DNA of 64,000 nt, from assembly GCA_903845295.1 (NCBI GenBank), contig CAIMWV010000015.1, positions 6,354 through 70,353 of the forward strand, read 5' to 3'. The notes below the pieces were generated by a model. It saw only the letters and a program-made list of their open reading frames with translations. It made no database searches and had not been told where the DNA came from. This DNA is from Candidatus Staskawiczbacteria bacterium. Its GTDB lineage: Bacteria > Patescibacteriota > Minisyncoccia > Minisyncoccales > Staskawiczbacteraceae. Of the stretch, positions 342 through 55,201 are shown one piece after another; the first letter of the stretch is position 1, and each line of letters starts with the position of its first letter. The position numbers and the translations under genes are program-made.

Positions 342-376
342 AAAAAAAAGAAGCGTTTGCCGAGAACAAACGCTTC
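342..376 (-). terminator. Rho-independent terminator of G+C-rich cassette 1
   Basis: Minus strand reads gaagcgtttg-ttctcgg-caaacgcttc followed by T8, 54 nt downstream of the stop at 430. Confidence 0.6.
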
Positions 377-429
377 ATGAAACTGATGTGCTGTTGCACC
401 TACTGCTGGCTTCTCGGACCAGCTTGTTT

Positions 430-1491: not shown

Positions 1492-1568
1492 GAGCCCCCT
1501 CCTTCCCTGGGCCGTAGCCCAAAAAGATCCCAAACTGTCAAAATGCTTCCTTAACTTAACATAATCAT

Positions 1569-1597
1569 ATTATAGCAAATTTATATGTCTTTGTCAA
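1569..1597 (-). promoter_or_regulatory. Consensus sigma70-type promoter driving cassette 1
   Basis: Minus strand TTGACA (1597-1592), 17-nt spacer, TATAAT (1574-1569), about 70 nt upstream of ATG 1491. Confidence 0.55.
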
Positions 1598-1648: not shown

Positions 1649-1757
1649 TTTTTAATAAACCCAATAAATAGCACTGACGGAATAGTGAAGACTCAAGGGT
1701 TTCTACTATTCTTCTGCTTTATTGAATTTATTTTAAAAATATGGTAAATTATTTTAT

Positions 1758-3622: not shown

Positions 3623-3696
3623 GGGCCTGTAGCTCAGCTGGTTAGAGCACGGCTCTTATAAAGCCGGGGTCGATGGTTCGAGTCCATCCAGGCCCA
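3623..3696 (+). tRNA. tRNA-Ile (anticodon TAT)
   Basis: Manual cloverleaf: gggcctg/caggccc acceptor, anticodon arm cggct-cttataa-agccg, T arm gatgg-ttcgagt-ccatc. 74 nt, no encoded CCA. Confidence 0.85.
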
Positions 3697-3723
3697 CAAA
3701 ATTGAAAAAATTAGTAAAAATAA

Positions 3724-3796: not shown

Positions 3797-3892
3797 CCGG
3801 GAATTTAAAAATTTGCGAAAACTATGGGTTTGCCCAGTGATAAACACTGGGCGTCGGGTGTTAATCACCCGACGAGTCCTATAGCGCCCACA
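3797..3892 (+). repeat. tRNA-trailing mini-insert ending in a 19-bp duplicate of the tRNA-Val 3' end
   Basis: cgagtcctatagcgcccac occurs at 3779-3797 and again at 3873-3891. Two hairpins (gcccagtg..cactgggc, gtcgggtg..cacccgac) sit just before the second copy, which ends 1 nt before the RluA-family ATG. Confidence 0.6.
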
Positions 3893-4603
3893 ATGAATAT
3901 AAAAATAATTTACGAAGATGATGATGTTCTGGTTGTTGATAAGCCGGCAGGAATTGTAGTTTTCCCGGAGGGTCAAACCAAAGAAAATACCCTGATTGAC
4001 GCTTTAATTGAAAAATATCCCGAGTTAAAAAACACTGGAGAACAGCCAAGATACGGAATTGTGCACAGATTAGATAAAGAGACTTCCGGGGTTTTACTGG
4101 TGGCAAAGAACAATGAAAGCTTGATTTTTCTGCAAAAACAGTTTAAAAATAGAGAGGTAGGAAAGAAATATGTTTGCTTGGTTGAAGGAACGATAAAAGA
4201 GGACAAAGGAGAGATCAAAACTTTAATTGCCAGATCTCCTAAAGACGGGAGGAAACAAAAAGCTTACTCAGAAAATGGACCTCACCCAAAATCAGCCAGG
4301 GAGGCTATAACAGAATATGAGGTTTTAGAAAGATTTAAAGATTATACACTATTAGAAGTTGAGATTAAAACAGGCAGACGCCACCAAATACGGTGTCATT
4401 TTTCTTATTTACATCATCCGATTGCAGGAGATAAATTATACAGTTTCAAAAATTCAAAGATTCCAAAAGGCCTGATGAGGCAATTCCTGCACTCGGCATA
4501 TTTAAAAATCCAATTGCCAAGTGGAGAAATTAAAGAATTTAAATCAGAGCTGCCGGAAGAATTAAACAACGTATTAAAAAATTTACAGCCGGGCGAACAA
4601 TAA
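3893..4603 (+). CDS. RluA-family 23S rRNA/tRNA pseudouridine synthase (RluD-like)
   Basis: Track ORF 3824..4603 trimmed to MNIKIIYEDDDVLVVDKPAG. Catalytic motif HRLDKETSGVLLVAK. Confidence 0.85.
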   Translation: MNIKIIYEDDDVLVVDKPAGIVVFPEGQTKENTLIDALIEKYPELKNTGEQPRYGIVHRLDKETSGVLLVAKNNESLIFLQKQFKNREVGKKYVCLVEGTIKEDKGEIKTLIARSPKDGRKQKAYSENGPHPKSAREAITEYEVLERFKDYTLLEVEIKTGRRHQIRCHFSYLHHPIAGDKLYSFKNSKIPKGLMRQFLHSAYLKIQLPSGEIKEFKSELPEELNNVLKNLQPGEQ

Positions 4604-4692
4604 TGAATTCGGCGTAAATGAGGCATTAATGTATTCGATATATCAGATGGCCTCATTTCCGAAGTAGTCTTATTCGCTTCGCTCACAAGACC
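4592..4692 (+). promoter_or_regulatory. Two-hairpin leader RNA motif, copy A (abuts rplS ATG)
   Basis: Stem cgtaaatgaggc/gcctcatttccg around a conserved loop aatgtattcgatatatca, then hairpin gtcttat..acaagac, then c-ATG. Homologous to copies at 17996-18096, 28149-28251 and 55112-55201. Confidence 0.6.
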
Positions 4693-8111: not shown

Positions 8112-9638
8112 TTAAAGTTCTCCCTTTTTTCTTTCTTCGACGTATGCGACCAGTATATCCCCTTTTTCAATTTTTGTATTGCCTTCAAAAAGTATGCCGG
8201 CTTCATCGCCCTTCCTCAATAAATCGATATCTTTTTTATCGCGCTGGAGATTGATTATCCTGCCTGACCCTATTTTTTTGTCGTCTCTGAAAACCTCTAA
8301 TTTTAATCCTTTTTTCAGTTCGCCCTCGGTAATTTTTCCGCCCACGATCTGCCTGTTTTTTTCTCCCCAAAAAACCAGCAATGTCCTTAACTTTCCGACA
8401 TCTTTTCTTGTTATTTCTGCCTCTAAAGTTTTTTCCAAGCTATGCCTCACGTCCTGTATTAATTCATATATTATATCAAATGTTTTAATTCTCAGTTTTT
8501 TCTCCAAATCATTTTTCATAAACTGAAGGACAGTCGGACTAATTTTAACCCTGAATCCGATTATTATGGCTTTTGACATCTCAGCAAGCTTTGCGTCCGT
8601 TTCATTTATTTCCCCGACCTCTGATTTTAAAATACGCAAAGTAGCTTTATCCTGGGGCAAGCTTTTCAGCATACCATCAATCGCCTCCAGCGAACCGAAA
8701 ACATCTCCCTTCAAAATTATATTCAAGACTTTTTTGTTCGGATCAGATTCCAAAACAGTTGAACCAATTTCTCTTTTCGGCTGTTCTGTTCTTATCTTTG
8801 CCATTGCCTCCTCGGCTGTTTTATAGCTTCTGAACTTTTCTCCGACTGCCGGCACTTTTTCAAATCCTAAAATAATAACCGGCTGAGAAGGATTTGCTTC
8901 TTTTATAGGAAGACCCTTAAAGTCCTCCAAATGTTTTATTTTGGCCAAAGCCAAATCCGTGGCGATGATGTCCTTATTTTTCAAAATACCTTTTTTCACA
9001 ATAGCAGTTGCCACGGGCCCTTTTGAACCGTCCATATAGGATTCAATAATCAATCCTTCCGCAGAAACCTCTGTTTCCGATCTTAAATCCTGCAAATCAG
9101 CAACCAGTAATACAACCTCCAACAATTCATCGATTCCTGTCTTTTCTTTTGCCGAGACTTCCACAGCAGGTATTGTCCCGCCGAAAGATTCAACTAAAAC
9201 ATCTATTTTGGAAAGCTCTCCTTTTATTTTTTCAGGATTTGCCGTCGGCAAATCAATTTTATTTAAAACAACAATCATCGGGATTTCAGCCCTTTTTATC
9301 GCCATCACAGCTTCCTTGGTCTGCGGCTGTACTGATTGGGCGGCATCTACAACCAGCAAAGCAATATCAGCAACTTCAGCCCCTCTGGCCCTCATTGCAG
9401 AAAATGCCTCGTGGCCAGGCGTATCGATGAATGTTATTTTTTTCCCTTTTTCCTCAACTTCATAAGCTCCAATATGCTGGGTGATCCCGCCCGATTCTTT
9501 TGAGGTTATTTTAAAATCCCTGATTGCTTCTAAAAGAGAACTCTTTCCGTGGTCAACGTGACCCAAAACAACCACCACTGGCGGCCTGTGCAAAATCTCT
9601 TCTATTTTGGAGGACCCTTTAGGTCGTTTTTTAGCCAT
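8112..9638 (-). CDS. infB: Translation initiation factor IF-2 (short form lacking the long N-terminal region)
   Basis: 508 aa. GTPase motifs GHVDHGKSS, DTPGHEAF, NKID. IF-2 C-terminal domains. Confidence 0.95.
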   Translation of the reverse strand: MAKKRPKGSSKIEEILHRPPVVVVLGHVDHGKSSLLEAIRDFKITSKESGGITQHIGAYEVEEKGKKITFIDTPGHEAFSAMRARGAEVADIALLVVDAAQSVQPQTKEAVMAIKRAEIPMIVVLNKIDLPTANPEKIKGELSKIDVLVESFGGTIPAVEVSAKEKTGIDELLEVVLLVADLQDLRSETEVSAEGLIIESYMDGSKGPVATAIVKKGILKNKDIIATDLALAKIKHLEDFKGLPIKEANPSQPVIILGFEKVPAVGEKFRSYKTAEEAMAKIRTEQPKREIGSTVLESDPNKKVLNIILKGDVFGSLEAIDGMLKSLPQDKATLRILKSEVGEINETDAKLAEMSKAIIIGFRVKISPTVLQFMKNDLEKKLRIKTFDIIYELIQDVRHSLEKTLEAEITRKDVGKLRTLLVFWGEKNRQIVGGKITEGELKKGLKLEVFRDDKKIGSGRIINLQRDKKDIDLLRKGDEAGILFEGNTKIEKGDILVAYVEERKKGEL

Positions 9639-10110
9639 GATAATTGATTGCTTTATTTACAGCTTCAAGTTCCTCATTAGACAGCGCATAATCTGACTTT
9701 CCTTGTTTTATTGTTTTTGTATAAACCCTGTTTCCGTCTTTTACAAACAGGCTGGAAATTAAAAAACCGTTATTTTTGTCATCTAACATTGCGATACAAA
9801 AGCTTTGGTTGCCCCCCATATCATTGAAAGGATTAAATCTTACTACGCTTATTTTTCGGATGGTTGTTTCGCAGATCCCTTCCAGGTTCTTAATTTTTAA
9901 AAAAGCGTCTTCAATTTTTTTCCCTAAATCGTCGTTTTTTTCTTTTTGCGACAATAAAATATCTTTAAAATCTTTTATTTTGCCTTTTTCCAATAGAATA
10001 TCTATTTTTTTATTGGCTTTATAAGAATATACAAACAAAAAAACATTGATAATTAACAGAATAAGAGCTAAGCCACCCGATAATAAAAAAATGGTCGCTT
10101 GTAAAGCCAT
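9631..10110 (-). CDS. DUF4446-like membrane-anchored protein
   Basis: 159 aa. N-terminal TM helix, then VVRFNPFNDMGGNQSFCIAMLDDKNNGFLISSLF, typical of the DUF4446 family. Overlaps the infB start by 8 nt. Confidence 0.6.
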   Translation of the reverse strand: MALQATIFLLSGGLALILLIINVFLFVYSYKANKKIDILLEKGKIKDFKDILLSQKEKNDDLGKKIEDAFLKIKNLEGICETTIRKISVVRFNPFNDMGGNQSFCIAMLDDKNNGFLISSLFVKDGNRVYTKTIKQGKSDYALSNEELEAVNKAINYHG

Positions 10111-14796: not shown

Positions 14797-14914
14797 CAAA
14801 GCCTGGATTTAAATACAAAGCAATTCGAGGGAGGATGAGAACCTCCACCCCCGGATTGCGAGCGAAGCGAGGCAATGCCTTCGGGCAACTCGGTTCGATT
14901 CCTCCCGAAGGCAC
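14797..14914 (+). repeat. tRNA-trailing mini-insert ending in a 23-bp (1 mismatch) duplicate of the tRNA-Arg(TCT) 3' end
   Basis: ggttcgattcctcccgagggcac at 14775-14797 versus ggttcgattcctcccgaaggcac at 14892-14914. The second copy is preceded by gcaatgccttcgggcaactc (14872-14891), identical to 5524-5543. Confidence 0.55.
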
Positions 14915-15602: not shown

Positions 15603-15647
15603 TAATGGTCGCAATTTTGGCTGTTTTTTGGTATAATATACAAAAAC

Positions 15648-17995: not shown

Positions 17996-18096
17996 GGTCT
18001 TGTGAGCGAGGCGAACAAGATTGCTTCGGAAATTAGACCCTGATATATCTTATACATTGTGGGTCTAATTTACGCTGAACACCTTACGCTTCGCTG
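17996..18096 (-). promoter_or_regulatory. Two-hairpin leader RNA motif, copy C (abuts rny GTG)
   Basis: Sense strand: cgtaaattagaccc-acaatgtataagatatatca-gggtctaatttccg, then gtcttgt-tcgcctcgctc-acaagac, then c-GTG. Confidence 0.6.
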
Positions 18097-20856: not shown

Positions 20857-20942
20857 TGATTTTATGAACAAATGAATAAAATCATCCTGAGGCTTGCGCG
20901 GATATATATTTTTTTCATTGCGCGCGAATCGAAGGAATGCCT

Positions 20943-21230
20943 TTATTCGGGAACATTTTTCTCATTAAGCTCTTTTACTAATTTTTCTGCAATTTTTTTT
21001 CGCTCCGGACTAAATAAGGCAATGACTTCACATGCTTTTGCCAAACTGACAGAAAAATCTATTTTTAAAATCAAACATTTGTCCTCGATATTTATTATAT
21101 GATAATAAAAATTATCTTTATTTATTTTTTCCATAAGTTTATTTGTCCTCTTAAATTTTCCGCAAAAAATTTTGGAGGATTTAATATTAATATTGTCTAA
21201 TTTAACATTTTTTTTGTAATAAATCAACAA
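20943..21230 (-). CDS. Hypothetical small protein (start uncertain)
   Basis: 95-aa ORF, very AT-rich. An internal ATG (MEKINKDN...) is an alternative start. No family recognised. Confidence 0.3.
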   Translation of the reverse strand: MLIYYKKNVKLDNINIKSSKIFCGKFKRTNKLMEKINKDNFYYHIINIEDKCLILKIDFSVSLAKACEVIALFSPERKKIAEKLVKELNEKNVPE

Positions 21231-28148: not shown

Positions 28149-28251
28149 GGTCTTGTGAGCGAGGCGAACAAGACTACTTCGGAAATGAGGCCATCTGATA
28201 TATCGAATACATTAGTGCCTCATTTACGCTGAACTCATTATTCGCTCACCG
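28149..28251 (-). promoter_or_regulatory. Two-hairpin leader RNA motif, copy B (abuts nusA ATG)
   Basis: Sense strand: cgtaaatgaggc-actaatgtattcgatatatcagatg-gcctcatttccg, then gtcttgt-tcgcctcgctc-acaagac, then c-ATG. Confidence 0.6.
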
Positions 28252-28318
28252 TTTTTTTTAAAAAAATATGCCCGTGGTCAGACGGACAAGTTAACTCATT
28301 AATTCCAATTCTTATATC

Positions 28319-28347
28319 AATATAGCAAAAGCCAACATATGTGTCAA
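28319..28347 (-). promoter_or_regulatory. Promoter of the nusA leader
   Basis: Minus strand TTGACA (28347-28342), 17 nt, TATATT (28324-28319). Confidence 0.5.
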
Positions 28348-28415
28348 GAAACAAAAAAGAGCCCGACAGATATCGAGCCCCTGCTAAAACGTGCAATGAG
28401 CAAATGGTGCAACTT

Positions 28416-28571
28416 TCAGTGGTCGTGAACGTCGACGCAATCGTTCTTGCAGGCGCGATAGATCAGCCAAAGAAAGGAAGCTATCATGACTGCTACAAAT
28501 ATCCATATTGCCAAGTCCTTGTTAGGATCTTCGTTTCGCCCGATTGCTTCAATTACTTTCATGACACACAT
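28416..28571 (-). CDS. Small membrane protein, 51 aa (cassette 2, gene 4)
   Basis: Not in the ORF track (<60 aa). AGGAGG 8 nt before the ATG. MCVMKVIEAIGRNEDPNKDLAIWIFVAVMIASFLWLIYRACKNDCVDVHDH has one TM helix. Confidence 0.5.
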   Translation of the reverse strand: MCVMKVIEAIGRNEDPNKDLAIWIFVAVMIASFLWLIYRACKNDCVDVHDH

Positions 28572-28604
28572 GGCCTCCGCCTCCTTTCCGGCTCTTTAGA
28601 AGCC

Positions 28605-28757
28605 TCAGTAGTCGCCATAGTAATCTTCTTCACGGGTAACGTACCAAATCCCGACGAGAAAAGCGAGCAGAAACAAACCGCACAACACTAATTCCGCCCT
28701 AGCCTTGCCGGGATCCATTTCTTGCAGCGTTTCCGCAATTACCGGCAGGATGTTCAT
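28605..28757 (-). CDS. Small membrane protein, 50 aa (cassette 2, gene 3)
   Basis: Not in the ORF track. AAGGAGG 4 nt before the ATG. MNILPVIAETLQEMDPGKARAELVLCGLFLLAFLVGIWYVTREEDYYGDY has one TM helix. Confidence 0.55.
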   Translation of the reverse strand: MNILPVIAETLQEMDPGKARAELVLCGLFLLAFLVGIWYVTREEDYYGDY

Positions 28758-28786
28758 GTTGCCTCCTTTCCCAAGCTCCCGAGGAG

Positions 28787-29191
28787 CTAAGCGTTAAACC
28801 GCGTGCGCCAGATGCTCTCCACCCGGCTAGGCTGGCTTGCTTCCTTCCGTTCCGGCCGGTCTTTCTTTTTCCTTTTCGGTTCGCAGGGTTTCACTATCCC
28901 ATGGAACACGCCCCGCCCGTGAAGAACTCGCAAAACCTTCAGCGCCCTTTCCACGTGTTTGATGGCGTGCCCGTTGGCTCGGAAAAACTTTTGCAGAGCC
29001 GCCCTGGCTTCTTCTTGCTTTTGATTGTTTCCCTGGTCAGCTTCCAAGGCCCCGCGGGCTTCGGTAAAGTCGCTGAAGAAAACAAACATGTCATCGCAGG
29101 CGTCTTGGGCGTCGGCCAGCGCTTCGTTATTCACGAGCGTCACGTAATCGTCGAAGCTTTCGCACCTCTTACCGTTCCGCATCTTAAACAT
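28787..29191 (-). CDS. Hypothetical protein, 134 aa, acidic N-half and basic C-tail (cassette 2, gene 2)
   Basis: Track ORF 28787..29260 trimmed to ATG 29191, with GGAGG 5 nt upstream. Its start overlaps the upstream stop by 8 nt (ATGTTTAA). Confidence 0.65.
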   Translation of the reverse strand: MFKMRNGKRCESFDDYVTLVNNEALADAQDACDDMFVFFSDFTEARGALEADQGNNQKQEEARAALQKFFRANGHAIKHVERALKVLRVLHGRGVFHGIVKPCEPKRKKKDRPERKEASQPSRVESIWRTRFNA

Positions 29192-29522
29192 TAAGCCCTC
29201 CTCCCTTTTCCTGCCTGCGGCTGTGTGCCCAGCAATTGCGGCACATGCCGCTGCCGCCATCGGGGTTTGTCTCCGTAAAATCGTTTTTGCACTTCCCGCA
29301 CTTGCCCTCCCTGTTCAATTCCTTCCATTTCATATCTATCACGATGTATTTCTTCTCTTCCCCTCCGCCGTAATATTTCATCACAACGAAGGATATGAAA
29401 AACATCGTCAGCGCGCCTTCAATCAACTGGTCTCTGACAGGCAACCCTCGCGTGAGAGTTAACAATCCCACAGAAACCGCAGTGATTGAAAGGGCGTAAA
29501 GAATCGCTTTCCACGTCTTCAA
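29184..29522 (-). CDS. Membrane protein with C-terminal CxxC...CxxC zinc-ribbon, 112 aa (cassette 2, gene 1)
   Basis: TTG start with AGGAGG 6 nt upstream. Two TM helices, then KCGKCKNDFTETNPDGGSGMCRNCW. Confidence 0.65.
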   Translation of the reverse strand: MKTWKAILYALSITAVSVGLLTLTRGLPVRDQLIEGALTMFFISFVVMKYYGGGEEKKYIVIDMKWKELNREGKCGKCKNDFTETNPDGGSGMCRNCWAHSRRQEKGGGLNV

Positions 29523-29572
29523 GTCGCGCCTCCTTTCAAAGAGCTGTTTAAGTTTGAACCTTAACCAGTTTC

Positions 29573-29601
29573 AGATTAAGGCAGTTTATGGTATGTGTCA
29601 A
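29573..29601 (-). promoter_or_regulatory. Candidate promoter of cassette 2
   Basis: Minus strand TTGACA (29601-29596), 17 nt, TAATCT (weak -10). Confidence 0.4.
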
Positions 29602-32128: not shown

Positions 32129-32316
32129 ATTTTAAAAAAATTATAATTTCTGGCATTCACCCCCGCTTCGCAGAGACGGGAGGATGCCAGCCCGTAGCGT
32201 AGGGTCGCGAGATTTATCCGCGAAGCGGAAAATCCCGACCTAGCGGAGGAAATTACATAAATCCAGCAATTTTTTGAAACTTATATTTCGCTTCGCGAAT
32301 TTCAAAAAATTGATAA

Positions 32317-34582: not shown

Positions 34583-34602
34583 GTTGGAATATCTAATAAA
34601 TG

Positions 34603-34625
34603 CCCTCCGGCGCATCGCTCAGGGC
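34603..34625. repeat. G+C-rich mini-element copy (intergenic)
   Basis: ccctccggcgcatcgctcagggc. Confidence 0.5.
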
Positions 34626-34685
34626 ACTTCGCTTTACTAACTCTTTGCAGTTGCCTGCATTGAGCGAGCGAAGCGAGTCGAAGTG

Positions 34686-36533: not shown

Positions 36534-36605
36534 GCCCCTGTGTTGAAATGGATATCATCTTTGCCTTCGAAGCAAAGGTTGAGGGTTCGAGTCCTTCCAG
36601 GGGCA
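36534..36605 (+). tRNA. tRNA-Arg (anticodon TCG)
   Basis: Acceptor gcccctg/caggggc, anticodon arm tttgc-cttcgaa-gcaaa, T arm gaggg-ttcgagt-ccttc. Confidence 0.9.
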
Positions 36606-36614
36606 CAAGAAAAT

Positions 36615-37028
36615 ATGAAAAAAATATTTTTATTGATTATTTTATTATCAATAATTTTTGCACCTGTTTTTGCAAGCGCCGCAGGATTAGTGCCATGCAC
36701 TGGAGCTGTAACTTGCACAGGCACGGCTCCCAATCAAACCTGTACAACCGATTGCACTATAAGCGCGTTTTTTACCCTGATTTTAAATATTTATAATTTC
36801 ATAGTACAAGATATAGCCACGCCATTGGCAATATTATCAATCTCAATCGGAGGAATTATTATGATGATTTCAGCCGGCAATCCAAACCTATTAGGGCTTG
36901 GCAAAAAGATTTTTTATGCTGCAATCATCGGATTGGTTTTGGTTTTCTGTTCATGGTTGATAATTAATTTTATAATGCAGGCGGTCGGATATACCGCCAA
37001 TGGAGGAGCCTGGTCAAGCCTTCCATAA
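36615..37028 (+). CDS. Small secreted two-TM pilin-like protein (TrbC/VirB2-style T4SS pilin family common in CPR)
   Basis: Track ORF 36540..37028 trimmed to MKKIFLLIILL. Signal peptide, then AAGLVPCTG...C...C motif, then two hydrophobic helices. The ATG is 9 nt after the tRNA. Confidence 0.6.
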   Translation: MKKIFLLIILLSIIFAPVFASAAGLVPCTGAVTCTGTAPNQTCTTDCTISAFFTLILNIYNFIVQDIATPLAILSISIGGIIMMISAGNPNLLGLGKKIFYAAIIGLVLVFCSWLIINFIMQAVGYTANGGAWSSLP

Positions 37029-37155: not shown

Positions 37156-37428
37156 ATGTTCTATGTTTATTTTTTATTTTTAAATAACCAAAATATTTAT
37201 AAAGGATTTACTGCCGATTTAGAAAGAAAAATCGAATAACACAAAACAGGAAGGGTTGCATCAACAAAAAATAAAAATCCGACGCTTATCCACTATGAAG
37301 CCTATCTGCTAAAAACAGATGCGGAAAGGCGCGAGAGATTTCTCAAAACTACTGAGGGCAGAAGATTGCTTAAACAACAATTAAAAGATTTACTAAATAA
37401 ATTAGGTTCGTCAGGTCATTCGACCTGA
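37156..37428 (+). pseudogene. GIY-YIG nuclease gene with in-frame TAA (37237-37239), inserted at the tRNA-Lys 3' end
   Basis: MFYVYFLFLNNQNIYKGFTADLERKIE*HKTGRVASTKNKNPTLIHYEAYLLKTDAERRERFLKTTEGRRLL... parallels the intact copy at 34152..34391. The stop replaces the conserved Glu (GAA to TAA). Confidence 0.7.
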
Positions 37429-37466
37429 CGCCCAGTCGGATGACTGGGCGAATCCTGTTGAGGGCA

Positions 37467-37495
37467 CCCTTCGACTCGCTTAGCTCGCTCAGGGC
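37467..37495. repeat. G+C-rich mini-element copy (intergenic)
   Basis: cccttcgactcgcttagctcgctcagggc. Confidence 0.5.
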
Positions 37496-37580
37496 GAACT
37501 TCTTTACAAAAGAACAAAATTAGAGTATATTATATCTATTATTAACCTTGGACGCCGGAAGCGCCCTTGTATATTAAAAA

Positions 37581-37850
37581 ATGTCGTTAACAACAAAAGA
37601 AAAGACAAAAATAATAAAAGACGTTAGTGAAGACGAAAAAAATACGGGCTCTGCTGATGTGCAGATTGCTTTGTTATCAAAAGCAATAGACAAGCTGGTT
37701 TTGCATCTGAAAAAACACCCTCAAGATGTGCATTCAAAAAAAGGGCTTATCACAATGGTCATAAAAAGGAAAAAACAATTGGCCTATTTGAAAAAAATAT
37801 CTGAAAAAAGATATTCGGCTATCATCAAAAAAATCGGATTAAAAAAGTAA
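37581..37850 (+). CDS. rpsO: 30S ribosomal protein S15
   Basis: 89 aa. GSADVQIALLSKAIDKLVLHLKKHPQDVHSKKGL. TGTATATT lies 5 nt before the ATG. Confidence 0.95.
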   Translation: MSLTTKEKTKIIKDVSEDEKNTGSADVQIALLSKAIDKLVLHLKKHPQDVHSKKGLITMVIKRKKQLAYLKKISEKRYSAIIKKIGLKK

Positions 37851-37874: not shown

Positions 37875-38378
37875 ATGCAGCCAAAACCAAAAGAGCAGAG
37901 AGTAGAGGTGCTCATAGACGTACAAAATTTGTATTATTCAGCAAAAAACCTTTACCACTCGAAAGTCAATTTTCAGGAAGTTTTAAAACAGGCAGTTGCC
38001 GGTAGAAAGTTTATTAGGGCTTTTGGTTATGTAGTGCGTACAAAAACTGGCGAAGAAGCGCCATTTTTTGATGCATTGAGCAAAATTGGAATTGAAACAA
38101 GAGTAAGAGATCTGCAGGAGTTTTATGGAGGAGCGAAAAAGGCTGACTGGGATGTCGGGATTGTAATTGATGCGATAAGAACTGCTCCGGGATTAGACGT
38201 AATTGTTTTAGTGTCAGGCGACGGAGATTTTATTCCCTTGGTAGAGTATTTAAAAAACTTTGGGAAAAGAGTTGAAGTGGTTGCATTTGGCAGGACAACT
38301 TCAGCAAAACTAAAAGAGGTTGCCGATGAGTTTATCGATTTAGATGAAAATGTTGCAAAATTTTTGTTGAAAAAATAA
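37875..38378 (+). CDS. NYN-domain (LabA/DUF88-like) protein
   Basis: 167 aa. VEVLIDVQNLYYS...DWDVGIVIDAI...VIVLVSGDGDFIPLVEYLK. Confidence 0.75.
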   Translation: MQPKPKEQRVEVLIDVQNLYYSAKNLYHSKVNFQEVLKQAVAGRKFIRAFGYVVRTKTGEEAPFFDALSKIGIETRVRDLQEFYGGAKKADWDVGIVIDAIRTAPGLDVIVLVSGDGDFIPLVEYLKNFGKRVEVVAFGRTTSAKLKEVADEFIDLDENVAKFLLKK

Positions 38379-44109: not shown

Positions 44110-44134
44110 GTTTTGTGTGGTAAAATATAAGAAT

Positions 44135-46868: not shown

Positions 46869-46955
46869 GATACATTAAATTTACCATTTAAAAACCGGCC
46901 AGTCAAATAGTTATGCACAACAAACACAACTGCTTTTATATGCTATAATATTCCA

Positions 46956-48493: not shown

Positions 48494-48617
48494 AAAACAA
48501 TTACCAATTAGCGCTAGATGTGGACAACTTGAGCGTTTTTTTATTTCCCTGCGAAAACGTTAAACATTAAGAATTGGATTGGCCCTTGTTTTTGAATTTA
48601 TGTTATAATAAATAAAT

Positions 48618-49226
48618 ATGTTAAATATCAGTTTCTATTTATATATATTTGTTCTGATTATATGGCTTATCTATATATTTAATTCTTTCTATCAAAATTA
48701 CCGGATGAAAAAATTTATACCCAGCAAAACCATAGAAGTTTTAACTATTCCTTTTTACATTTTTTCTACATTATCTTTTTATCTCTTAACCAGAAACATT
48801 ATAATTATTATTTCAACTGGCAATAGAGAAAAATTTATAAATTTAAATTCGTTATGGCCGATAATTTTAGTTATCACAGGAATAGTATTTTGCTCCTGTT
48901 CTGCAATTCTTTATATCTATGCCAATTTTTTCGAAAAATCTTTTCCAAGCTGCATAACCGCGGAAAATAACAAGCCGCTTGAAGGATTATATAAATATAT
49001 CCGCCATCCTTCATATTACATATTCTTTTTTATAACTTTCGGGAATGCTCTCTGCTTATTAAGTCTGCCACTTTTCATATTGGCATGCATAAATCATATT
49101 TGTCTTTATTTTTATTATATGATTGAAGAAAATCAAATCAGGAAAACAAATGCTGATTATGATAAATATTTGAAGATAAGCAACAGGTTCTTGCCGAATT
49201 TTTTTAAAATGCCGGCTATCAACTGA
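48618..49226 (+). CDS. Membrane methyltransferase-like protein (ICMT/PEMT-type fold)
   Basis: 202 aa with 4-5 TM helices. GLYKYIRHPSYY motif as in isoprenylcysteine carboxyl / phospholipid methyltransferases. Confidence 0.5.
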   Translation: MLNISFYLYIFVLIIWLIYIFNSFYQNYRMKKFIPSKTIEVLTIPFYIFSTLSFYLLTRNIIIIISTGNREKFINLNSLWPIILVITGIVFCSCSAILYIYANFFEKSFPSCITAENNKPLEGLYKYIRHPSYYIFFFITFGNALCLLSLPLFILACINHICLYFYYMIEENQIRKTNADYDKYLKISNRFLPNFFKMPAIN

Positions 49227-49278
49227 TAAAGATTAATGCTTTATCTATTATTTGTGATATAATTATTATAATTAAAAC

Positions 49279-50025
49279 ATGATTAAAAAGACTGAGGCAA
49301 TGTTCTTTCGGGTTTCAGAAAATATATTCATAAAATATTATAAGGCCGGTGAAAAATTAAAAGATTTTTTATCGCCAATTTTTAATCCGGAAAATAAGGA
49401 AAGAGGCCTTGTAATTTCGGGTACCACACTGCTTATTGTTGGAATAGCAGCAGCAGTATTAGCCGGAGTAGGGTATGTATCCGTAAAAAATACCGTAGCA
49501 GGAGCGGAAGCAGATTTTTTTACCGCTTTAGTTTTAGGAATAGGTTTAGTGTTTGTGATGCTTGGCCAAGCAGTTTTTGGTTTTGCCGCCGGTTTTTTAA
49601 CAAGAGTTTTAGACCCACAGTTCATAAATGGAGCCATTACTAGCAATCAGGTATTCTCAACTGTATGGGGAAACGTCAGGGATTTAGCTAATATGATTAT
49701 TGTTATGGGATTTGTTGTTGTGGGAATAGCCACCGCATTAAGAATCCAGGAATATGCGGCAAAGAAAATTTTATGGCGGTTAATATTAATTGCTCTTGTA
49801 ATTAATTTTTCCGGCCTGTTTTGCGGGCTGATAATTGATTTATCAAATATAACAATGAACGGACTGCTTGGCGGCAGCAGTGCCCAAACAAACATTGAGT
49901 CGATATCTCTTGCTATTACAAATTATGTAAATAATGCGCTTGGAGAAACCGCAAAATTAATGCCCGGTGGCGGCATAATCTCAACTCCCCCAGCTCCTGC
50001 AGCTCCTGCAGCTGTTGGCAGATAA
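49279..50025 (+). CDS. Polytopic membrane protein, possible N-terminal part of a VirB6/TrbL-like channel component
   Basis: 248 aa with 5-6 TM helices. The Pro/Ala tail STPPAPAAPAAV resembles the N-terminal linker of 51397..52911. Confidence 0.5.
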   Translation: MIKKTEAMFFRVSENIFIKYYKAGEKLKDFLSPIFNPENKERGLVISGTTLLIVGIAAAVLAGVGYVSVKNTVAGAEADFFTALVLGIGLVFVMLGQAVFGFAAGFLTRVLDPQFINGAITSNQVFSTVWGNVRDLANMIIVMGFVVVGIATALRIQEYAAKKILWRLILIALVINFSGLFCGLIIDLSNITMNGLLGGSSAQTNIESISLAITNYVNNALGETAKLMPGGGIISTPPAPAAPAAVGR

Positions 50026-50146
50026 ACTCCTGCCTCGCCGCCCCAATAACGCTAAAGCAGAAGCTCTTAATATTTCTGACTAGATAAATTTATTAAAGAG
50101 TTTAGAAAAAGAATAAAAATATTTTTATCAATAATTTTAAACCATT

Positions 50147-51244
50147 ATGACAGTAAAAAATAATTTAATTTGGGTAGGGGCGTCTCTTGCGGTGTTTTTG
50201 TTTTTAATTAGTTTCGGAAATAAAACTTTACTTTATATGAATACGGCGGATTTAATTGGCAGCCTTGGCAGCCAATGCGCTCCTAATTGGCAGTGTAACT
50301 CTTGGACTGAATGCAACTCTCGGGGCGAGGCATACAGGCAGTGTGCAGATATAAATAATTGTATGAGGGCTGTTTCTCCCGATACCAGTCGTGATTGTGT
50401 GCTGACGCCGGAAATGCTGACTTCTTATCAGAATGATTACGAAAATAAACTTTTAAATATCGGAGGCGATACCTCTAAAATAAAAGTTGATTTTACCGGG
50501 GGAATAGGGGAACAAAATAGCGGGGACTGCCAGTATATTAACGACACAAGCCCAATTTGCTATTATTTCAATCTTCCCGGCAATATGTCTATCAAATTTT
50601 CGAACAGCCAGGCATCAGGAGATTCGTCCCAGGGGGAAATGACCTTTATAAACGGAGATACAAATAAAAAACTGATGACAGGGATAGGATCTTTAAAAGA
50701 CCCTCTTAATAAAATTTCGGCGGGATTTTATGTTTATCCGACTAATTCCGAAAATATTTTTTATATTGTCGGCGATAAAACAATAGAAAATAATATTATG
50801 TCCTGGAAAGAAATTTATTTTGATGTGTCAAAACAGGATATCGTTTTTTATGCAGATGCCGGCGTGAATTTAGGAGGGACAAACGTAAGTTTCGTTAATA
50901 TTAAAAAAGGCGCCCAGAAAGAATATGATATTAATGTAAATCTGCCCAGTTCTTGCACTTTTCCTGAAAAATATGGATTAAACGGCATTTTTGTGAACAA
51001 CGTAAATAATAGCGTATTTCCCAATTCCCTGTCATTTGATTGCAATCAAGACGGACAAAGCTATTCAGACTCAATTGAGGTCGAACCGCTTGCGCTAAGC
51101 AGCGATTTTAAAACGCTCCATTTATTTGTGCATAAATTTAAAAACGACGGCCTTAAAAATAATGGCCCTGAAAAAGATGGCACAGATTGGCATTACTTAT
51201 TTGGTTTAACTGGCGGCACAATAACATTTGCGCCAAATAATTAA
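50147..51244 (+). CDS. Secreted hypothetical protein with N-terminal Cys-rich motif
   Basis: 365 aa with a signal/TM anchor, then CAPNWQCNSWTECNSRGEAYRQCADINNC. Confidence 0.55.
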   Translation: MTVKNNLIWVGASLAVFLFLISFGNKTLLYMNTADLIGSLGSQCAPNWQCNSWTECNSRGEAYRQCADINNCMRAVSPDTSRDCVLTPEMLTSYQNDYENKLLNIGGDTSKIKVDFTGGIGEQNSGDCQYINDTSPICYYFNLPGNMSIKFSNSQASGDSSQGEMTFINGDTNKKLMTGIGSLKDPLNKISAGFYVYPTNSENIFYIVGDKTIENNIMSWKEIYFDVSKQDIVFYADAGVNLGGTNVSFVNIKKGAQKEYDINVNLPSSCTFPEKYGLNGIFVNNVNNSVFPNSLSFDCNQDGQSYSDSIEVEPLALSSDFKTLHLFVHKFKNDGLKNNGPEKDGTDWHYLFGLTGGTITFAPNN

Positions 51245-51396
51245 ATAAAAAAACCTTTAAGTTTTTGGGCAAGTGACGATTAACGATAGCCGCCGGAATA
51301 TGACCTGCGAAAAATTTTATAGAAAAAAAGATAAAATATTCTTAATAATGCGATCAATAAAAAAATCAAAAAAGATTTAAACAATAATCTTAACTT

Positions 51397-52911
51397 ATGC
51401 CAAAATTTTTTTCAATTTTAAAAAACAAAAAACTAATATTTTTTGTTTTTCTAATTTTTACATTTTTAGCACTAACTTTTCCTGAAATAACTATCGCTGT
51501 TAACGGTGGACCCGTAATGAATGGTTTGTTACCATCGACCCCAATATCAGCACCAACTCCCGCACCGGTTACAGCCGCCGTTAAAGAGCCTGGGAAATTT
51601 TTGTTAAATTGCATCTTATTTTTTTGCATGTTGGTATTTGCGGCATACACGTTTGCGATTATGGCTGTTTTGATTGCTGCAAGATATGCCGTACTTGCCG
51701 CGCTTTATATACTTTCGCCATTGGCTTTTGCTTTTTGGATTTTTCCTGCGTCCAGATTAAAGAAATACCACTCACAATGGTGGGACGAATTTTTAAAATG
51801 GTGCTTTGTGGGAGTTTTTGCCTCATTTTTTATTTATTTGGCAACAAAAGTAATAGATGCCTCAACCAAAAGCGGGAAGTTAGACACTTTCCCTCTTTTC
51901 GTTGCTTTTATCTTTATTATAGTCGGTTACAAGATGATCCGCAAAACTGGTGGAATAGCAGATATAGCAGCTGGCGCAATTAAAGGAGTTGCAACCGGAG
52001 GAGCTGGGCTTGCTATGGGAGCAGTGGTAGGGGCGGGAGGGATAGCAATGAATAGATTAGGTAGGACAGCAACCGGACAAAGAGTAAAAGAGGCAGTTAG
52101 CGACAGAGTGGCCAGAATTCAAGAAACTCTTGGCGCGCCAGAGGGCCATGCAGCCCAGCAAAGAACGGCCAGGGAGCGTGCTGCAGCAACACAAGTAAAT
52201 GCTCTGCGAACATCTTCAGCCCAAGGAGACAGAAATAGATACGAACAACTTGTCAGAACCGGCCAAGGAGCAATGGGAGCAGCAGCTGTTACTACAGCCA
52301 ATGAGCACGGCGACCTTGGCAGATTATATGATCTGAATACCGATAATGGACTTAACCAAGCTAATAATCGCGTGGCCCATGCTCAAGCATTCGGACATGA
52401 AAGAGGTGAATTTGAAAGAAGAAATTATCAATTAAGAGGTGTTAACGAAGGAGCAATAGGCGCTTACGCAACTGCTCATCCCAATGTTGACCCAGCCAAT
52501 ATTCCAGCTACATTAAGGAGAGAACAGCTCGCAGAAAACCTCCCAACAATGACTGCTCCCGAATTTGGAAGAATTAATCATGAGGATCTTGGCGGTCCTG
52601 GCGGCTATCAATTTGTAAGAGATAACTTTACTCCCCGCATGATAGATCGAATAGGAGTTACAGGAAACGCTGATTTGATAGGTGCTGTAAATGCCCATGC
52701 GCCACAAATGATAACCGAAGCTGCTGCTGCAGGTGCTAATGGCAACCAAGGAGAATTTAACAGATTAAATGAAAGAATAATTGCGATTGCAAGATTGCCC
52801 GGAGCTCATCTGCCAAATAATCCTCCTCCGCAAACAAATGCATATCCGCCAAACAATGTTAATATACCTCCTCCAGGTCCAGGTCCAAACCCATATATTC
52901 CTCTGCCATAA
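51397..52911 (+). CDS. TrbL/VirB6-like polytopic membrane protein with Gly-rich loop and long soluble Pro-rich tail
   Basis: 504 aa with a signal segment and about 5 TM helices (LAALYILSPLAFAFWIFP..., WCFVGVFASFFIYL...). GGIADIAAGAIKGVATGGAGLAMGAVVGAGG. Confidence 0.55.
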   Translation: MPKFFSILKNKKLIFFVFLIFTFLALTFPEITIAVNGGPVMNGLLPSTPISAPTPAPVTAAVKEPGKFLLNCILFFCMLVFAAYTFAIMAVLIAARYAVLAALYILSPLAFAFWIFPASRLKKYHSQWWDEFLKWCFVGVFASFFIYLATKVIDASTKSGKLDTFPLFVAFIFIIVGYKMIRKTGGIADIAAGAIKGVATGGAGLAMGAVVGAGGIAMNRLGRTATGQRVKEAVSDRVARIQETLGAPEGHAAQQRTARERAAATQVNALRTSSAQGDRNRYEQLVRTGQGAMGAAAVTTANEHGDLGRLYDLNTDNGLNQANNRVAHAQAFGHERGEFERRNYQLRGVNEGAIGAYATAHPNVDPANIPATLRREQLAENLPTMTAPEFGRINHEDLGGPGGYQFVRDNFTPRMIDRIGVTGNADLIGAVNAHAPQMITEAAAAGANGNQGEFNRLNERIIAIARLPGAHLPNNPPPQTNAYPPNNVNIPPPGPGPNPYIPLP

Positions 52912-52932
52912 TTATAAAAAATTTATAAAAAA

Positions 52933-53577
52933 ATGAATGAACAAAAAAATAATGTACGCGTGTTATTTACGGTCAAAGCAAATTCTGGTCTTAATGACAT
53001 AATAAAAAAATTTGGCTTGGAAGAAACCATGGAAGAGTCTGTGAAAAGAATGCAAAAAGGAAAACTTGCAAAAATGGTTGTTATTGACCATTTATCCAAA
53101 GATTTTGCATTAGGGACTATATCAGAAAAAGATTTGGTCAGCTCTTTAAAAGATGATTTAGAAATTTCTCAACAAACAGCAGGGCAAATTTCAAAAGATA
53201 TTTTGACTAATATTATTCCTTTTTTGGAAAAGGTTCCCGAAGAAAAATTGAAGGACCCTGCTTTTGTGGAAGAACTTGTTAAAAAAGTTTTGGGAGAAAC
53301 AATGAAAGAAAAACCTTTGATTTCTAAAATAGAAACTCCCGGGCAAGAACCCTTCGGCACGGCTCAGGGCAAGAAAGATATAGATCTTTTTCCTAAAATT
53401 AAACCCGATGAAAATATTACCAAACCAACAGAAAAAAATACTTCAGTGCCAGAGAAAGAGCTGGGTGGAGGAACCGCACTTCAATCAAAAAAAATTAAAA
53501 AACCGCTTCCAAAAGAATCTGCGCCCCAAATAAAACAAACAAGGGGACCAGACAATTATCGCGAACCGATTGGGTAA
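52933..53577 (+). CDS. Hypothetical protein, 214 aa (contains an in-frame G+C-rich mini-element)
   Basis: ATG ORF. The segment EPFGTAQGK is encoded by 53350-53370. Confidence 0.55.
   Translation: MNEQKNNVRVLFTVKANSGLNDIIKKFGLEETMEESVKRMQKGKLAKMVVIDHLSKDFALGTISEKDLVSSLKDDLEISQQTAGQISKDILTNIIPFLEKVPEEKLKDPAFVEELVKKVLGETMKEKPLISKIETPGQEPFGTAQGKKDIDLFPKIKPDENITKPTEKNTSVPEKELGGGTALQSKKIKKPLPKESAPQIKQTRGPDNYREPIG
53350..53370. repeat. G+C-rich mini-element copy (inside 52933..53577, third reading frame)
   Basis: cccttcggcacggctcagggc. Confidence 0.6.
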
Positions 53578-53590
53578 AAAATTGCAATAG

Positions 53591-53624
53591 AAAATGGCAA
53601 ACACAATCGTGTTTGCCATTTTTG
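53591..53624. terminator. Bidirectional terminator shared by 52933..53577 and the SPFH gene
   Basis: aaa-atggcaaacac-aatc-gtgtttgccat-tttt, a perfect 11-bp stem. Confidence 0.7.
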
Positions 53625-53653
53625 ATTCCATTTGCTGGAACCCTTTCGCTCCC

Positions 53654-54808
53654 TTAGTTGGGCGTCCTCTTCAAGGGATCCCATTTAGGATATTTGCCAT
53701 TTCTGGCAAAGTGGTCCGCAGCAGCTTGCTCATACGGCGCTGGATCCACCGGCATATTGGATCTTCCTCGCTGACGAGGTCCTTGGCCGCCTTGCTGTCC
53801 GTCGCGATTTCCACCGCCGCGCTTGCCTTGACCGCCGACTAAGATGCCTGCGCCTCCGCCACCGCCGCCGACGACCGCAGTGGTTGCATTTTCGAGGCCG
53901 TGAACCTCTAGATTTTGACCTCCGGCCTTCAAATAAGCCCTCTTGGCCAATTCGTCCTGCTTCTTGGTAATTTGTTCCGGAGAAGCGCCAGGATGGGCCT
54001 TTTTCCAGGCTTCTAATGCCTGGTTTGTATCATCAAGCCGAGTGGCGCTTGCCGCTGCCTCATGTACGGCGGCCTCTTTTTCCTTCTGGGCCTTGTATGG
54101 TGCCAGTGTGGTGTCCCGCCATCCTGGCGGGGGATCAATGCTGGCCAGTTCCACTGACTCAACCTCAATCCCGTACGTATCCCTCAGCTCAACAATCACC
54201 GAGGGCTTTCCACTTTCGCGGGGGGCATTCATTGCCTCCCACAAACGCTGCCCGAACACTTTCACGGCGCTTCCCGCTGGCACATTCTGGCCAGTAATTT
54301 GCTCCCAAGAAACCTCCGTGAAAACTTGACGCAAAGCTGAGATGACTAGGGTGATCGTCGTGACGTACCAATCGCTGGCCACAAAGAAGGCCTTGGATGG
54401 ATCCGCCATCCGTGCATGCGTCGCGATCACCCCCGTCAAGGGCAACCCATGAGAATCCTCTTCATCCTTGAAGGGGATAGCATATGGGTATCTGGTGCTC
54501 TTAAAGCTGGTGATGTTGGAATCGTCATGATCCTCAACGGTGACGTCGCCGTCATCTTTCACCACACATTTTTTGAACACCATCTTCCTGGAGTAAAGAG
54601 TGTACACTCCTGGCCACCCCAGCCAGTGAAGACCGGGTCCGAGTGTTATGTGGTAGCAGCCCAGCCGCATTACCACCTTGTACCAACCCTGCTCCACCTT
54701 GGTCCAAAGGAAATTGCGCTTGGCAAGCCCGAGGACGGCATAGAAGCCAAGCAAAGCCACCAGCACGATTGCGGCCAGCGACACCAGAAACTCCTCAAAA
54801 AAGTCCAT
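53654..54808 (-). CDS. SPFH/band-7 (flotillin/prohibitin-like) membrane protein with Gly/Arg/Gln-rich tail; G+C-rich cassette 3
   Basis: 384 aa. ATG with GGAGG 6 nt upstream. N-terminal TM helix, a central region with an SPFH-like pattern, coiled coil KAQKEKEAAVHEAAA, tail GGGGGGAG...GKRGGGNRDGQQGGQGPRQRGR. Family call is from pattern memory only. Confidence 0.65.
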   Translation of the reverse strand: MDFFEEFLVSLAAIVLVALLGFYAVLGLAKRNFLWTKVEQGWYKVVMRLGCYHITLGPGLHWLGWPGVYTLYSRKMVFKKCVVKDDGDVTVEDHDDSNITSFKSTRYPYAIPFKDEEDSHGLPLTGVIATHARMADPSKAFFVASDWYVTTITLVISALRQVFTEVSWEQITGQNVPAGSAVKVFGQRLWEAMNAPRESGKPSVIVELRDTYGIEVESVELASIDPPPGWRDTTLAPYKAQKEKEAAVHEAAASATRLDDTNQALEAWKKAHPGASPEQITKKQDELAKRAYLKAGGQNLEVHGLENATTAVVGGGGGGAGILVGGQGKRGGGNRDGQQGGQGPRQRGRSNMPVDPAPYEQAAADHFARNGKYPKWDPLKRTPN

Positions 54809-54971
54809 GTTCCACCTCCAAAAAAAGAGTTAAGCTTCGAATCGTTGATGGTCTGCGCAGGACAATCCCGCGCTAAACCCGTCGCGTAGTAATTTCTGCT
54901 GAAAAAAATCTAGGCAAATCACTACGTGACAGGTTTAAAAGACCATTTTTCTCAATGTTCTTGTTATATAA

Positions 54972-55000
54972 AGCATAGCATATTATTTTAATCTTGTCAA
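54972..55000 (-). promoter_or_regulatory. Candidate promoter of cassette 3
   Basis: Minus strand TTGACA (55000-54995), 17 nt, TATGCT (54977-54972), with a roughly 160-nt structured leader. Confidence 0.45.
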
Positions 55001-55048: not shown

Positions 55049-55078
55049 TTGCCTATGCTTTTTTATACGTGATATAAT
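55049..55078 (+). promoter_or_regulatory. Candidate promoter of the PrgI/VirB4 operon
   Basis: TTGCCT, 18 nt, TGaTATAAT (extended -10). Confidence 0.4.
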
Positions 55079-55111: not shown

Positions 55112-55201
55112 AAGGTGTTCAGCGGAAATTAGACCAGCAATGTATAAGATATATCAAGGTCTAATTTCCGAAGCAAATCTGCTCGCCTCGCTCGCAGACC
55201 C
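55112..55201 (+). promoter_or_regulatory. Two-hairpin leader RNA motif, copy D (abuts GTG of the PrgI-like gene)
   Basis: cggaaattagacc-agcaatgtataagatatatcaa-ggtctaatttccg, then tctgc-tcgcctcgctc-gcaga, then ccc-GTG. Confidence 0.6.

Follow-up and report, generated by a model that had tools for sequence, protein, structure and literature searches.

A probable two-mode scheme of translation initiation in a Parcubacteria-type chromosome: ordinary genes without Shine-Dalgarno sequences and a few G+C-rich genes led by strong ones

How are start codons found on a chromosome whose ordinary genes seem to be without Shine-Dalgarno (SD) motifs, and what is to be made of the few genes that carry strong ones? 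The question is raised by a 64,000-nucleotide stretch of a Candidatus Staskawiczbacteria genome (contig CAIMWV010000015.1, positions 6,354 to 70,353; hereafter the window, meaning that stretch at its full length). It is about 39% G+C and holds 18 tRNA genes and about 56 ordinary genes, among them ftsH, rplS, infB, rbfA, htrA, rny, clpP, tig, an H+-pyrophosphatase gene, nusA, cca, rpsO, pnp, comM and ksgA, as well as a type IV secretion-like cluster (TrbL-like, PrgI, TraC-like, VirB4 and large cysteine-rich proteins). Three segments, at ~300-1600, 28400-29500 and 53600-54900, rise to 58-64% G+C; we call the corresponding cassettes C1, C2 and C3. An earlier note on this DNA described the native genes as SD-less and frequently leaderless, and took the SDs of the six cassette genes as a marker of foreign origin.

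We propose, with a probability of roughly 0.68, that this chromosome of the Parcubacteria type (candidate phyla radiation, CPR, or Patescibacteria) uses two modes of initiation, a reading that builds on sequence statistics, synteny and conservation of signals, all directly observed. In the default mode, which would serve essentially all ordinary genes and also those internal to operons, there would be no SD pairing, and the start codon would lie in an A-rich, G-poor, weakly folded stretch; perhaps a quarter of the transcription units would be leaderless or have a leader of about 4 nt or less, an extended -10 box (TGnTAnnnT), usually with no good -35, ending 6 nt (range 5-10) before the ATG, so that transcription would begin at or beside its A. 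In the special mode, reserved for a few genes (C1, the four genes of C2, and C3), a near-consensus sigma-70 promoter would be followed by a long structured 5' untranslated region (UTR), a strong SD 4-8 nt from the start and, at the far end, a terminator, in genes whose G+C at third codon positions (GC3) is 0.54-0.74 as against ~0.35.

The absence of SDs from the native genes was confirmed. The 56 native starts were curated by N-terminal conservation, where this was obvious, together with independent gene calls from other assemblies, which they match, and each start was scored by the duplex free energy (ΔG) of positions -25 to -3 with the anti-SD ACCUCCUUA. Their median was -0.5 and their mean -1.06 kcal/mol, shuffled upstream sequences averaging -0.73 +/- 0.18; a ΔG of -6 or below was reached by 5 of the 56, where the shuffles predict 2.0, and by 11.6% of the other ATGs of the window. 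For comparison across data sets a single naive open reading frame (ORF) pipeline was applied to the window, related loci, other CPR loci, Firmicutes and Chloroflexi: genes at or below -6 made up 13% in the window, 11% in the related loci (330 genes) and 13% in the other CPR loci (234 genes), as against 47% in Firmicutes and 35% for the Chloroflexi set. When the whole window was scanned for SD, start codon and ORF together, no SD-led real gene start came up outside the cassettes except a weak AAGGA before an NYN gene at 37875. Nor was any G/C-containing k-mer enriched at -18 to -1 in 366 genes, where A/T-rich words alone stood out; an altered, non-canonical SD is therefore unlikely, and was rejected. 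The native genes are thus SD-less, as the earlier note had it, both in the window, where they score no better than shuffles, and in the related loci, with a Firmicutes control that does yield SDs through the same pipeline; the ten coordinates given in that note also proved exact when rechecked in the sequence.

Native starts share a context of their own. Positions -6 to -2 are A in 75, 66, 61, 59 and 55% of cases, G accounts for 2-7% at positions -10 to -2, and T or C predominates at -1; the region from -30 to +30 is 26% G+C, and its minimum free energy (MFE) is -5.0 kcal/mol, compared with -8.4 kcal/mol for internal windows (p = 6e-7). Such A-rich, SD-free starts fit the description given for Bacteroidia, with upstream adenines and SD-blind ribosomes (PMC7797042, PMC13000457). 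Because 15 of the 56 native genes begin within 30 nt of a same-strand neighbour, all 15 without an SD, the main route must be SD-free initiation on leadered or polycistronic RNA.

The cassettes are of another kind. That their six genes have a GGAGG-type SD was likewise upheld: AAGGAGG or GGAGG lies 4-8 nt upstream of every one, with a ΔG of -10.6 to -12.6, a value of -10 being reached by 3.5% of the other NTG positions inside the cassettes, so that six of six would arise by chance at ~2e-9. Each cassette is a complete minus-strand unit, made up as follows.

342 to 1597, minus strand: C1, with promoter TTGACA-17-TGCTATAAT (1569-1597), a leader of ~70 nt and the SD AAGGAGG (1498-1504)
430 to 1491, minus strand: C1 coding sequence, 353 amino acids, GC3 0.74, with a hairpin and T-run terminator (342-376)
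28416 to 29601, minus strand: C2, with promoter-like TTGACA-17-TAATCT (29573-29601) and four small genes, each with AGGAGG, GC3 0.54-0.68
29184 to 29522, minus strand: C2 gene with a TTG start, SD at 29529-29535
28787 to 29191, minus strand: C2 gene, SD at 29197-29204
28605 to 28757, minus strand: C2 gene, SD at 28762-28768
28416 to 28571, minus strand: C2 gene, SD at 28574-28586
53591 to 55000, minus strand: C3, with promoter TTGACA-17-TATGCT (54972-55000), a 5' UTR of ~160 nt and the SD GGAGGTGG (54812-54819)
53654 to 54808, minus strand: C3 coding sequence, an SPFH/Band-7 protein, GC3 0.61, with a terminator at 53591-53621

Overall G+C of the cassettes is 0.58-0.64 against 0.39 for the window, and their GC3 of 0.54-0.74 compares with 0.29-0.41 in native genes. 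The codon bias of highly expressed genes was considered as a cause of the high GC3 and rejected, as rplS, rpsO, tig and nusA have a GC3 of 0.31-0.38. The G+C-rich start regions of the cassettes have an MFE of -8 to -23 kcal/mol; folding more strongly, they could therefore not use the unstructured-leader route, which would be a simple reason for the link between high G+C and the need for an SD.

The signals of C1 and C3 are conserved with position. At least eight independent assemblies contain an identical C1 in the same context, on which ground an assembly chimera was rejected. The only other homologues, 48-49% identical, have ftsH on one side and the S1-protein gene on the other in two related loci (L083 and L086), with a G+C of 0.59 against 0.38-0.40 for the genome, a GC3 of 0.72-0.74, and the promoter, AAGGAG and terminator hairpin as in the window; the neighbouring FtsH is 92% identical, as against 48% for C1. 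Differences between the C1 copies fall on codon positions in the order 3 > 1 > 2, and C1 is therefore coding. C3 has 66 homologues, one of them labelled Staskawiczbacteria in NCBI; in L088-L090 and 21 metagenome loci the gene is always flanked by the TrbL-like gene on one side and prgI-traC-virB4 on the other, and lies on the opposite strand. A TTGACA-N17-(TGn)TAnnnT promoter lies 70-177 nt upstream in 19 of 21 copies, a GGAG-type SD is present in all (ΔG -5.5 to -11.5), and the G+C of the gene is 0.44-0.54, compared with 0.30-0.41 in its flanks. The SPFH protein evolves much faster than VirB4, pairs with a VirB4 identity of at least 90% having an SPFH identity of 45-77%; the window allele is 49% identical to that of the close relative L095, whose VirB4 is 99% identical, with a breakpoint ~45 nt inside the ORF.

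Through this divergence the GGAG core stays 4-8 nt from the ATG in ~25 orthologues while the flanking bases change. Since core and spacing persist through ~50% protein divergence, the SDs are most likely functional, which would require that the ribosome has kept an anti-SD. The association is also seen across 406 genes, where a strong SD (ΔG of -7 or below) occurs in 65% of those whose GC3 is at least 0.15 above the locus median, as against 3% of the bulk, and the GC3 excess is found in lineages with a background GC3 anywhere from 0.19 to 0.45.

C2 has a narrower distribution. The window polynucleotide phosphorylase is 74% identical to that of a syntenic contig of a metagenome-assembled genome (MAG), L001, and ~50% identical to those of Moraniibacteriota, Paceibacterota, Falkowbacteria and Lloydbacteria MAGs, which, together with the Staskawiczbacteria SPFH homologue, places the organism among CPR bacteria of the Parcubacteria type. 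C2 is missing at the nusA-yraN site of L001, C2b has near-identical homologues only, and C2a has weak matches to tiny proteins only. At that site L001 (200-3400) has different genes, one for a repeat protein of 561 amino acids and one, with the SD GAGGAG, for a DsbA-like protein, and the nusA-yraN gap is therefore a variable spot.

Can the native genes also be called frequently leaderless? We used two definitions, a loose -10 box (a TAnnnT hexamer with at most one mismatch to TATAAT, 5-11 nt from the start) and a strict extended -10 (TGnTAnnnT, again with at most one mismatch to TATAAT). The loose box is found at 14 of the 56 native genes, with 15 matches where ~6 would be expected from the density at 12-40 nt. 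Strict matches in the window occur at short gaps before ksgA (6 nt), comM (8), the gene of an ICMT-like membrane protein (8) and the ZIP transporter gene (10), with one further at 15, and at long gaps before pnp (30), htrA (32) and a hypothetical gene (39), then at 69, 99, 123 (prgI) and 170 (nusA). Among 399 genes of the window and related loci, 18 of the 107 matches fall at gap 6 and 30 at gaps 5-9, with none at gaps 0-4, few at 10-14 and otherwise a background that is low and flat; 8 strict matches at gap 6 occur in another set, of 231 CPR genes, and the Firmicutes control has no strict match at a gap below 30. Transcription usually starts 6 nt from the -10 hexamer, and the gap-6 peak thus has the phase of leaderless transcripts. 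The start codon is ATG in 41 of the 43 short-gap cases. About 14 of the matches are ksgA, at related loci whose upstream sequence is otherwise unrelated; the others come from at least 15 gene families, among them those of exonuclease III, the ICMT-like protein, comM and a UvrD-type helicase. Although the sequences upstream have diverged, the short-gap box is kept at ksgA, at comM and at the ICMT-like gene, and in several CPR lineages rpsO too has a TGnTAnnnT whose distance from the ATG is 6-9 nt. The sites in the window are these.

46941 to 46949, plus strand: extended -10 TGCTATAAT, ending 6 nt before the ksgA ATG (46956), the best leaderless candidate
44118 to 44126, plus strand: extended -10 TGGTAAAAT, 8 nt before the comM ATG (44135), containing TAAAAT (44121-44126)
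48601 to 48609, plus strand: extended -10 TGTTATAAT, 8 nt before the ATG (48618) of the ICMT-like membrane protein
15629 to 15637, plus strand: extended -10 TGGTATAAT, 10 nt before the ZIP transporter ATG (15648), containing TATAAT (15632-15637)
1742 to 1750, plus strand: TGGTAAATT, 7 nt before the ftsH ATG (1758)
32140 to 32145, minus strand: TATAAT, 11 nt before the NUDIX ATG (32128)
37568 to 37575, plus strand: -10-like TGTATATT, 5 nt before the rpsO ATG (37581), without canonical TGn spacing; the site to which the earlier note had drawn attention
37503 to 37531, plus strand: alternative rpsO promoter-like TTTACA-17-TATATT, 49 nt before the ATG, which would give a leader of ~42 nt with a GC hairpin
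37581 to 37850, plus strand: rpsO (S15) coding sequence, without an SD

Leaderless mRNAs are thus likely to be real in this chromosome but a minority. Of the claim that native genes are frequently leaderless we retain a subset with leaderless geometry, as the gap-6 peak indicates; the frequency was overstated, given the 15 of 56 genes that begin near a same-strand neighbour, the promoters 30-170 nt upstream of others (nusA, prgI, htrA and pnp), and a 91-nt structured element that abuts the start codon in four genes.

This element, a pair of hairpins, and the promoters associated with it are located as follows.

28319 to 28347, minus strand: nusA promoter TTGACA-17-TGCTATATT, native and perfect, 170 nt before the start
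28149 to 28237, minus strand: 91-nt two-hairpin element, ending flush with the nusA ATG (28148)
4604 to 4692, plus strand: the same element, flush with the rplS ATG (4693)
17996 to 18083, minus strand: the same element, flush with the rny GTG (17995)
55114 to 55201, plus strand: the same element, flush with the prgI GTG (55202)
55049 to 55078, plus strand: promoter-like TTGCCT-18-TGATATAAT, ahead of the prgI element

As the nusA promoter shows, long leaders occur among native genes, and consensus promoters are themselves native. The four genes with the element flush against their start, rplS, nusA, rny and prgI, are clearly not leaderless. The element has compensatory changes in both stems, invariant loops and a terminal RTGGA; a covariance model found one extra copy left of the window (L081 3908-3998), in frame with a metallo-beta-lactamase gene, and two copies in L095, at 9595-9685 and 20883-20973, both on the minus strand. 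In L095 it precedes dksA, ending in AGACC directly before GTGGAT, where the window has ATGGAC at dksA and no element, and L001 has no element at nusA; present in one close relative and absent from another, it is therefore a young, mobile leader module. It belongs to no Rfam family: a gathering-threshold scan of the window gave nothing beyond the 18 tRNAs, and a permissive Rfam scan of the nusA leader gave nothing credible. A hammerhead-type ribozyme was considered for the element and rejected, the core motifs being absent on inspection and Rfam giving no match. The nusA leader also contains a hairpin followed by a T-run (28260-28287, minus strand), attenuator-like and 94% conserved in L001 (~520-550).

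In two places a tRNA 3' end runs almost into a start codon.

3799 to 3895, plus strand: structured tRNA-like insert of 94 nt (z = -5.1), which forms the 3' end of tRNA-Val anew, 2 nt ahead of the rluD ATG (3893)
36534 to 36617, plus strand: tRNA-Arg (36534-36606), then after 8 nt the ATG (36615) of a pilin-like gene

The distance from the tRNA-Val 3' end to the rluD ATG is 0 nt in L086 (3783-3857) and 9 nt in L083 (3785-3868). With tRNA 3' ends abutting start codons in this way, tRNA processing may be a second source of leaderless or nearly leaderless messages. In the same neighbourhood a tRNA-Ile gene with anticodon UAU (3623-3697, plus strand) is also found beside tRNA-Val(GAC) in L083 and L086.

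Might the SD-led genes simply be imports? If the three G+C-rich cassettes were recent foreign DNA, their SDs would be a leftover of the donor's translation system, and one would expect what is seen in their composition (G+C 0.58-0.64 versus 0.39, GC3 0.54-0.74 versus ~0.35, SDs at six of six starts versus almost none of 56), in the absence of C2, known from near-identical homologues only, from the nusA-yraN site of the closest relative, and in a C3 allele at 49% identity between flanks 93-99% identical in L095, its coding body either replaced or very fast-diverged. We regard this as unlikely, because homologues of C1 and C3 are syntenic in many relatives and bring with them the same promoter, SD, terminator and raised GC3; every homologue whose genomic context was examined sits in a CPR-type context; the cassette promoters match the native nusA promoter; neither Pfam nor PHROG mobility domains (integrase or transposase) were found around the cassettes, nor convincing flanking direct or inverted repeats, terminal inverted repeats or a target duplication at them; and a GC3 excess over backgrounds of 0.19 to 0.45 looks maintained rather than decaying. 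As a marker of foreign origin, which is how the earlier note had used it, the SD and G+C signature fails for C1 and C3; to judge from synteny and signals these are resident, position-conserved and unusually fast-evolving genes, and the signature marks a resident, fast-evolving gene class with its own expression signals. The foreign-origin reading may stand for C2 alone, which is absent from the nearest relative, has no wider homologues and could be accessory DNA. A loss of the anti-SD from the ribosome, with GGAGG serving another role (mRNA stability, protein binding, or expression in another cell after transfer), would agree with the absence of the motif from 52% of Parcubacteria 16S sequences (PMC9297842) and of any SD signal from the native genes, with the position of C3 inside a type IV secretion-like cluster and with the textbook promoter, SD and terminator of the cassettes. 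We hold it to be very improbable: the 4-8 nt spacing of GGAG kept in ~25 orthologues is as expected from SD-anti-SD pairing, the likeness of the promoters to native ones makes transcription in the CPR cell likely, and export of DNA or RNA is without evidence. There is, too, only a slim chance that the TATAAT-like boxes are not promoters but an A/U-rich, translation-enhancing context of genes with short or longer leaders. The last 12 nt before native starts are indeed very A/T-rich, which raises the chance of TAnnnT, and many loose matches are TAAAAT or AATAAT; however, the strict motif peaks at gap 6, with none at gaps 0-4 and few at 10-14, a phase that promoter distance predicts and composition does not, and it survives at ksgA, comM and the ICMT-like gene where the upstream sequences have diverged.

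Several points weigh against the two-mode reading that we prefer. Leaderless status and SD function are both deduced from geometry and conservation. About 14 of the gap-6/7 matches belong to a single orthologue, ksgA, which leaves the geometry itself more certain than the frequency of leaderless starts. For rpsO the gap is 5, a proper TGn is missing, and TTTACA-17-TATATT, 49 nt upstream, looks the better site, which makes rpsO a weaker leaderless case than ksgA. C2, without homologues outside near-identical strains and absent at its site in L001, could still be imported. The persistent high GC3 of the cassette genes is not accounted for by two modes of initiation; frequent recombination with GC-biased conversion, selection on the structure or stability of the mRNA, and use by a different translation system are candidate causes. 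Lastly, the 16S 3' end (AAGTCGTAACAAGGTA, allowing up to 2 mismatches) is absent from the window and from all 116 loci examined, and should this lineage be among the Parcubacteria, roughly half of them, whose 16S has no CCUCCU, the SDs could not act by pairing and the two-mode model would fail.

Further observations concern the cassettes and their surroundings. The C1 protein, encoded divergently from ftsH, has Lys/Ala-rich tails and no Pfam or PHROG match; only three distant homologues were found among 5.8 billion proteins, the AlphaFold model is poor (pLDDT 61, four sequences), and a Foldseek search of the PDB had no match below E = 0.4. In the same genome, just to the left of the window and beyond the S1-protein gene, L081 (3400-3759) has a fourth SD-led gene (AAGGAG, ΔG -8.2, GC3 0.57, 119 amino acids). 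The 5' UTRs of the SPFH orthologues (window 54809-54971, minus strand; L090-L115) have in common a 5' box, GAACATTGTCAAAWAYGG, and a hairpin whose loop reads GUGUW, with compensatory changes in its stem; this may be a cis-regulatory RNA. The secretion cluster shows mosaic divergence between the window (48600-54770) and L095 (10044-14612): identity is 93-99% in most blocks but falls to 72-78% in the left half of the cluster, which runs from the ICMT-like gene through the TrbL-like gene to hyp214, and to less than 65% of nucleotides in the body of the SPFH coding sequence; the breakpoint lies near 54765. Between genes there are scattered short repeats, G+C-rich and of the type CCTTCGAC...GCTCAGGGCGAAC (for example at 37400-37495); they are found also at 14800-14900 and 34600-34680, and occur in frame in the genes at ~31290 (mem323), ~35650 (cca) and ~30200 (yraN), where they encode peptides such as PSTGSGRG.

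Among known systems the closest analogue is that of the Bacteroidia, whose SD-blind ribosomes ignore SDs except on rpsU, where a strong SD has a regulatory function (PMC9976891, PMC13000453, PMC7797042). As in Flavobacterium johnsoniae, nearly all genes here are without an SD, with upstream adenines and weak structure at the starts (PMC7797042, PMC13000457), and as in Bacteroidia a very small gene set has a strong, conserved SD (PMC9976891, PMC13000453). The phylum is a different one, however, and the SD-led genes here encode SPFH, a 353-amino-acid protein and small membrane proteins instead of the product of rpsU; they are, moreover, G+C-rich, hypervariable and driven by consensus promoters. 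Anti-SD sequestration in Bacteroidia involves bS21, bS18 and bS6, the genes for which are not in the window. The leaderless mRNAs of Actinobacteria, Deinococcus and archaea likewise have a -10 that ends ~6-7 nt before the ATG and no SD, but here leaderless starts, as deduced from sequence, would be a minority and would use an extended -10 with a poor -35; for a tRNA 3' end abutting a start codon, the tRNA punctuation of mitochondria is the closer likeness. Genomic islands share the atypical G+C and codon use, and the cassettes have a self-contained promoter and terminator; unlike islands, C1 and C3 are conserved in position, mobility genes and flanking repeats were not found, and the homologue contexts examined are internal to the CPR. 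Within the same broad lineage, only 48% of Parcubacteria 16S sequences were found to have the anti-SD motif, CCUCCU (Tsurumaki et al., 2022; PMC9297842), which predicts SD-less genes; that survey covered rRNA, not gene starts, and reported neither leaderless geometry nor conserved SD-led genes.

The loss of the anti-SD in some Parcubacteria is thus already published; what appears to be new is the gene-level description of SD-free and probably leaderless starts and of conserved, SD-led, G+C-rich genes, of which we found no account in the literature on CPR/Patescibacteria. Gene prediction and expression work in the CPR usually assumes SDs, and an SD-free default, with a probable leaderless fraction, affects both the calling of start codons and heterologous expression; an SD, high G+C and atypical codon use are, in these genomes, unsafe markers of foreign DNA. 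More speculatively, and with the odds in our view clearly against it, Parcubacteria may have a small conserved class of hypervariable genes (SPFH, C1, small membrane proteins) that differ from the rest of the genome at each level of expression, with GC3 and SD actively maintained, and that would be read by a distinct pool or state of ribosomes with a free anti-SD, as a private translational channel in a cell otherwise SD-blind; in an extreme version, still conceivable, the "generic bacterial" signals of the cassettes would be meant for expression in a host cell after transfer by the adjacent secretion apparatus. Should the anti-SD be missing in this lineage, the conserved SDs would be left without explanation. 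If, on the other hand, a special state of the ribosome does serve the SD-led class, this would be a second, independent case of "specialised initiation" of the Bacteroidia type, and it would lie in a lineage in which the anti-SD has been reported lost in half of its members.

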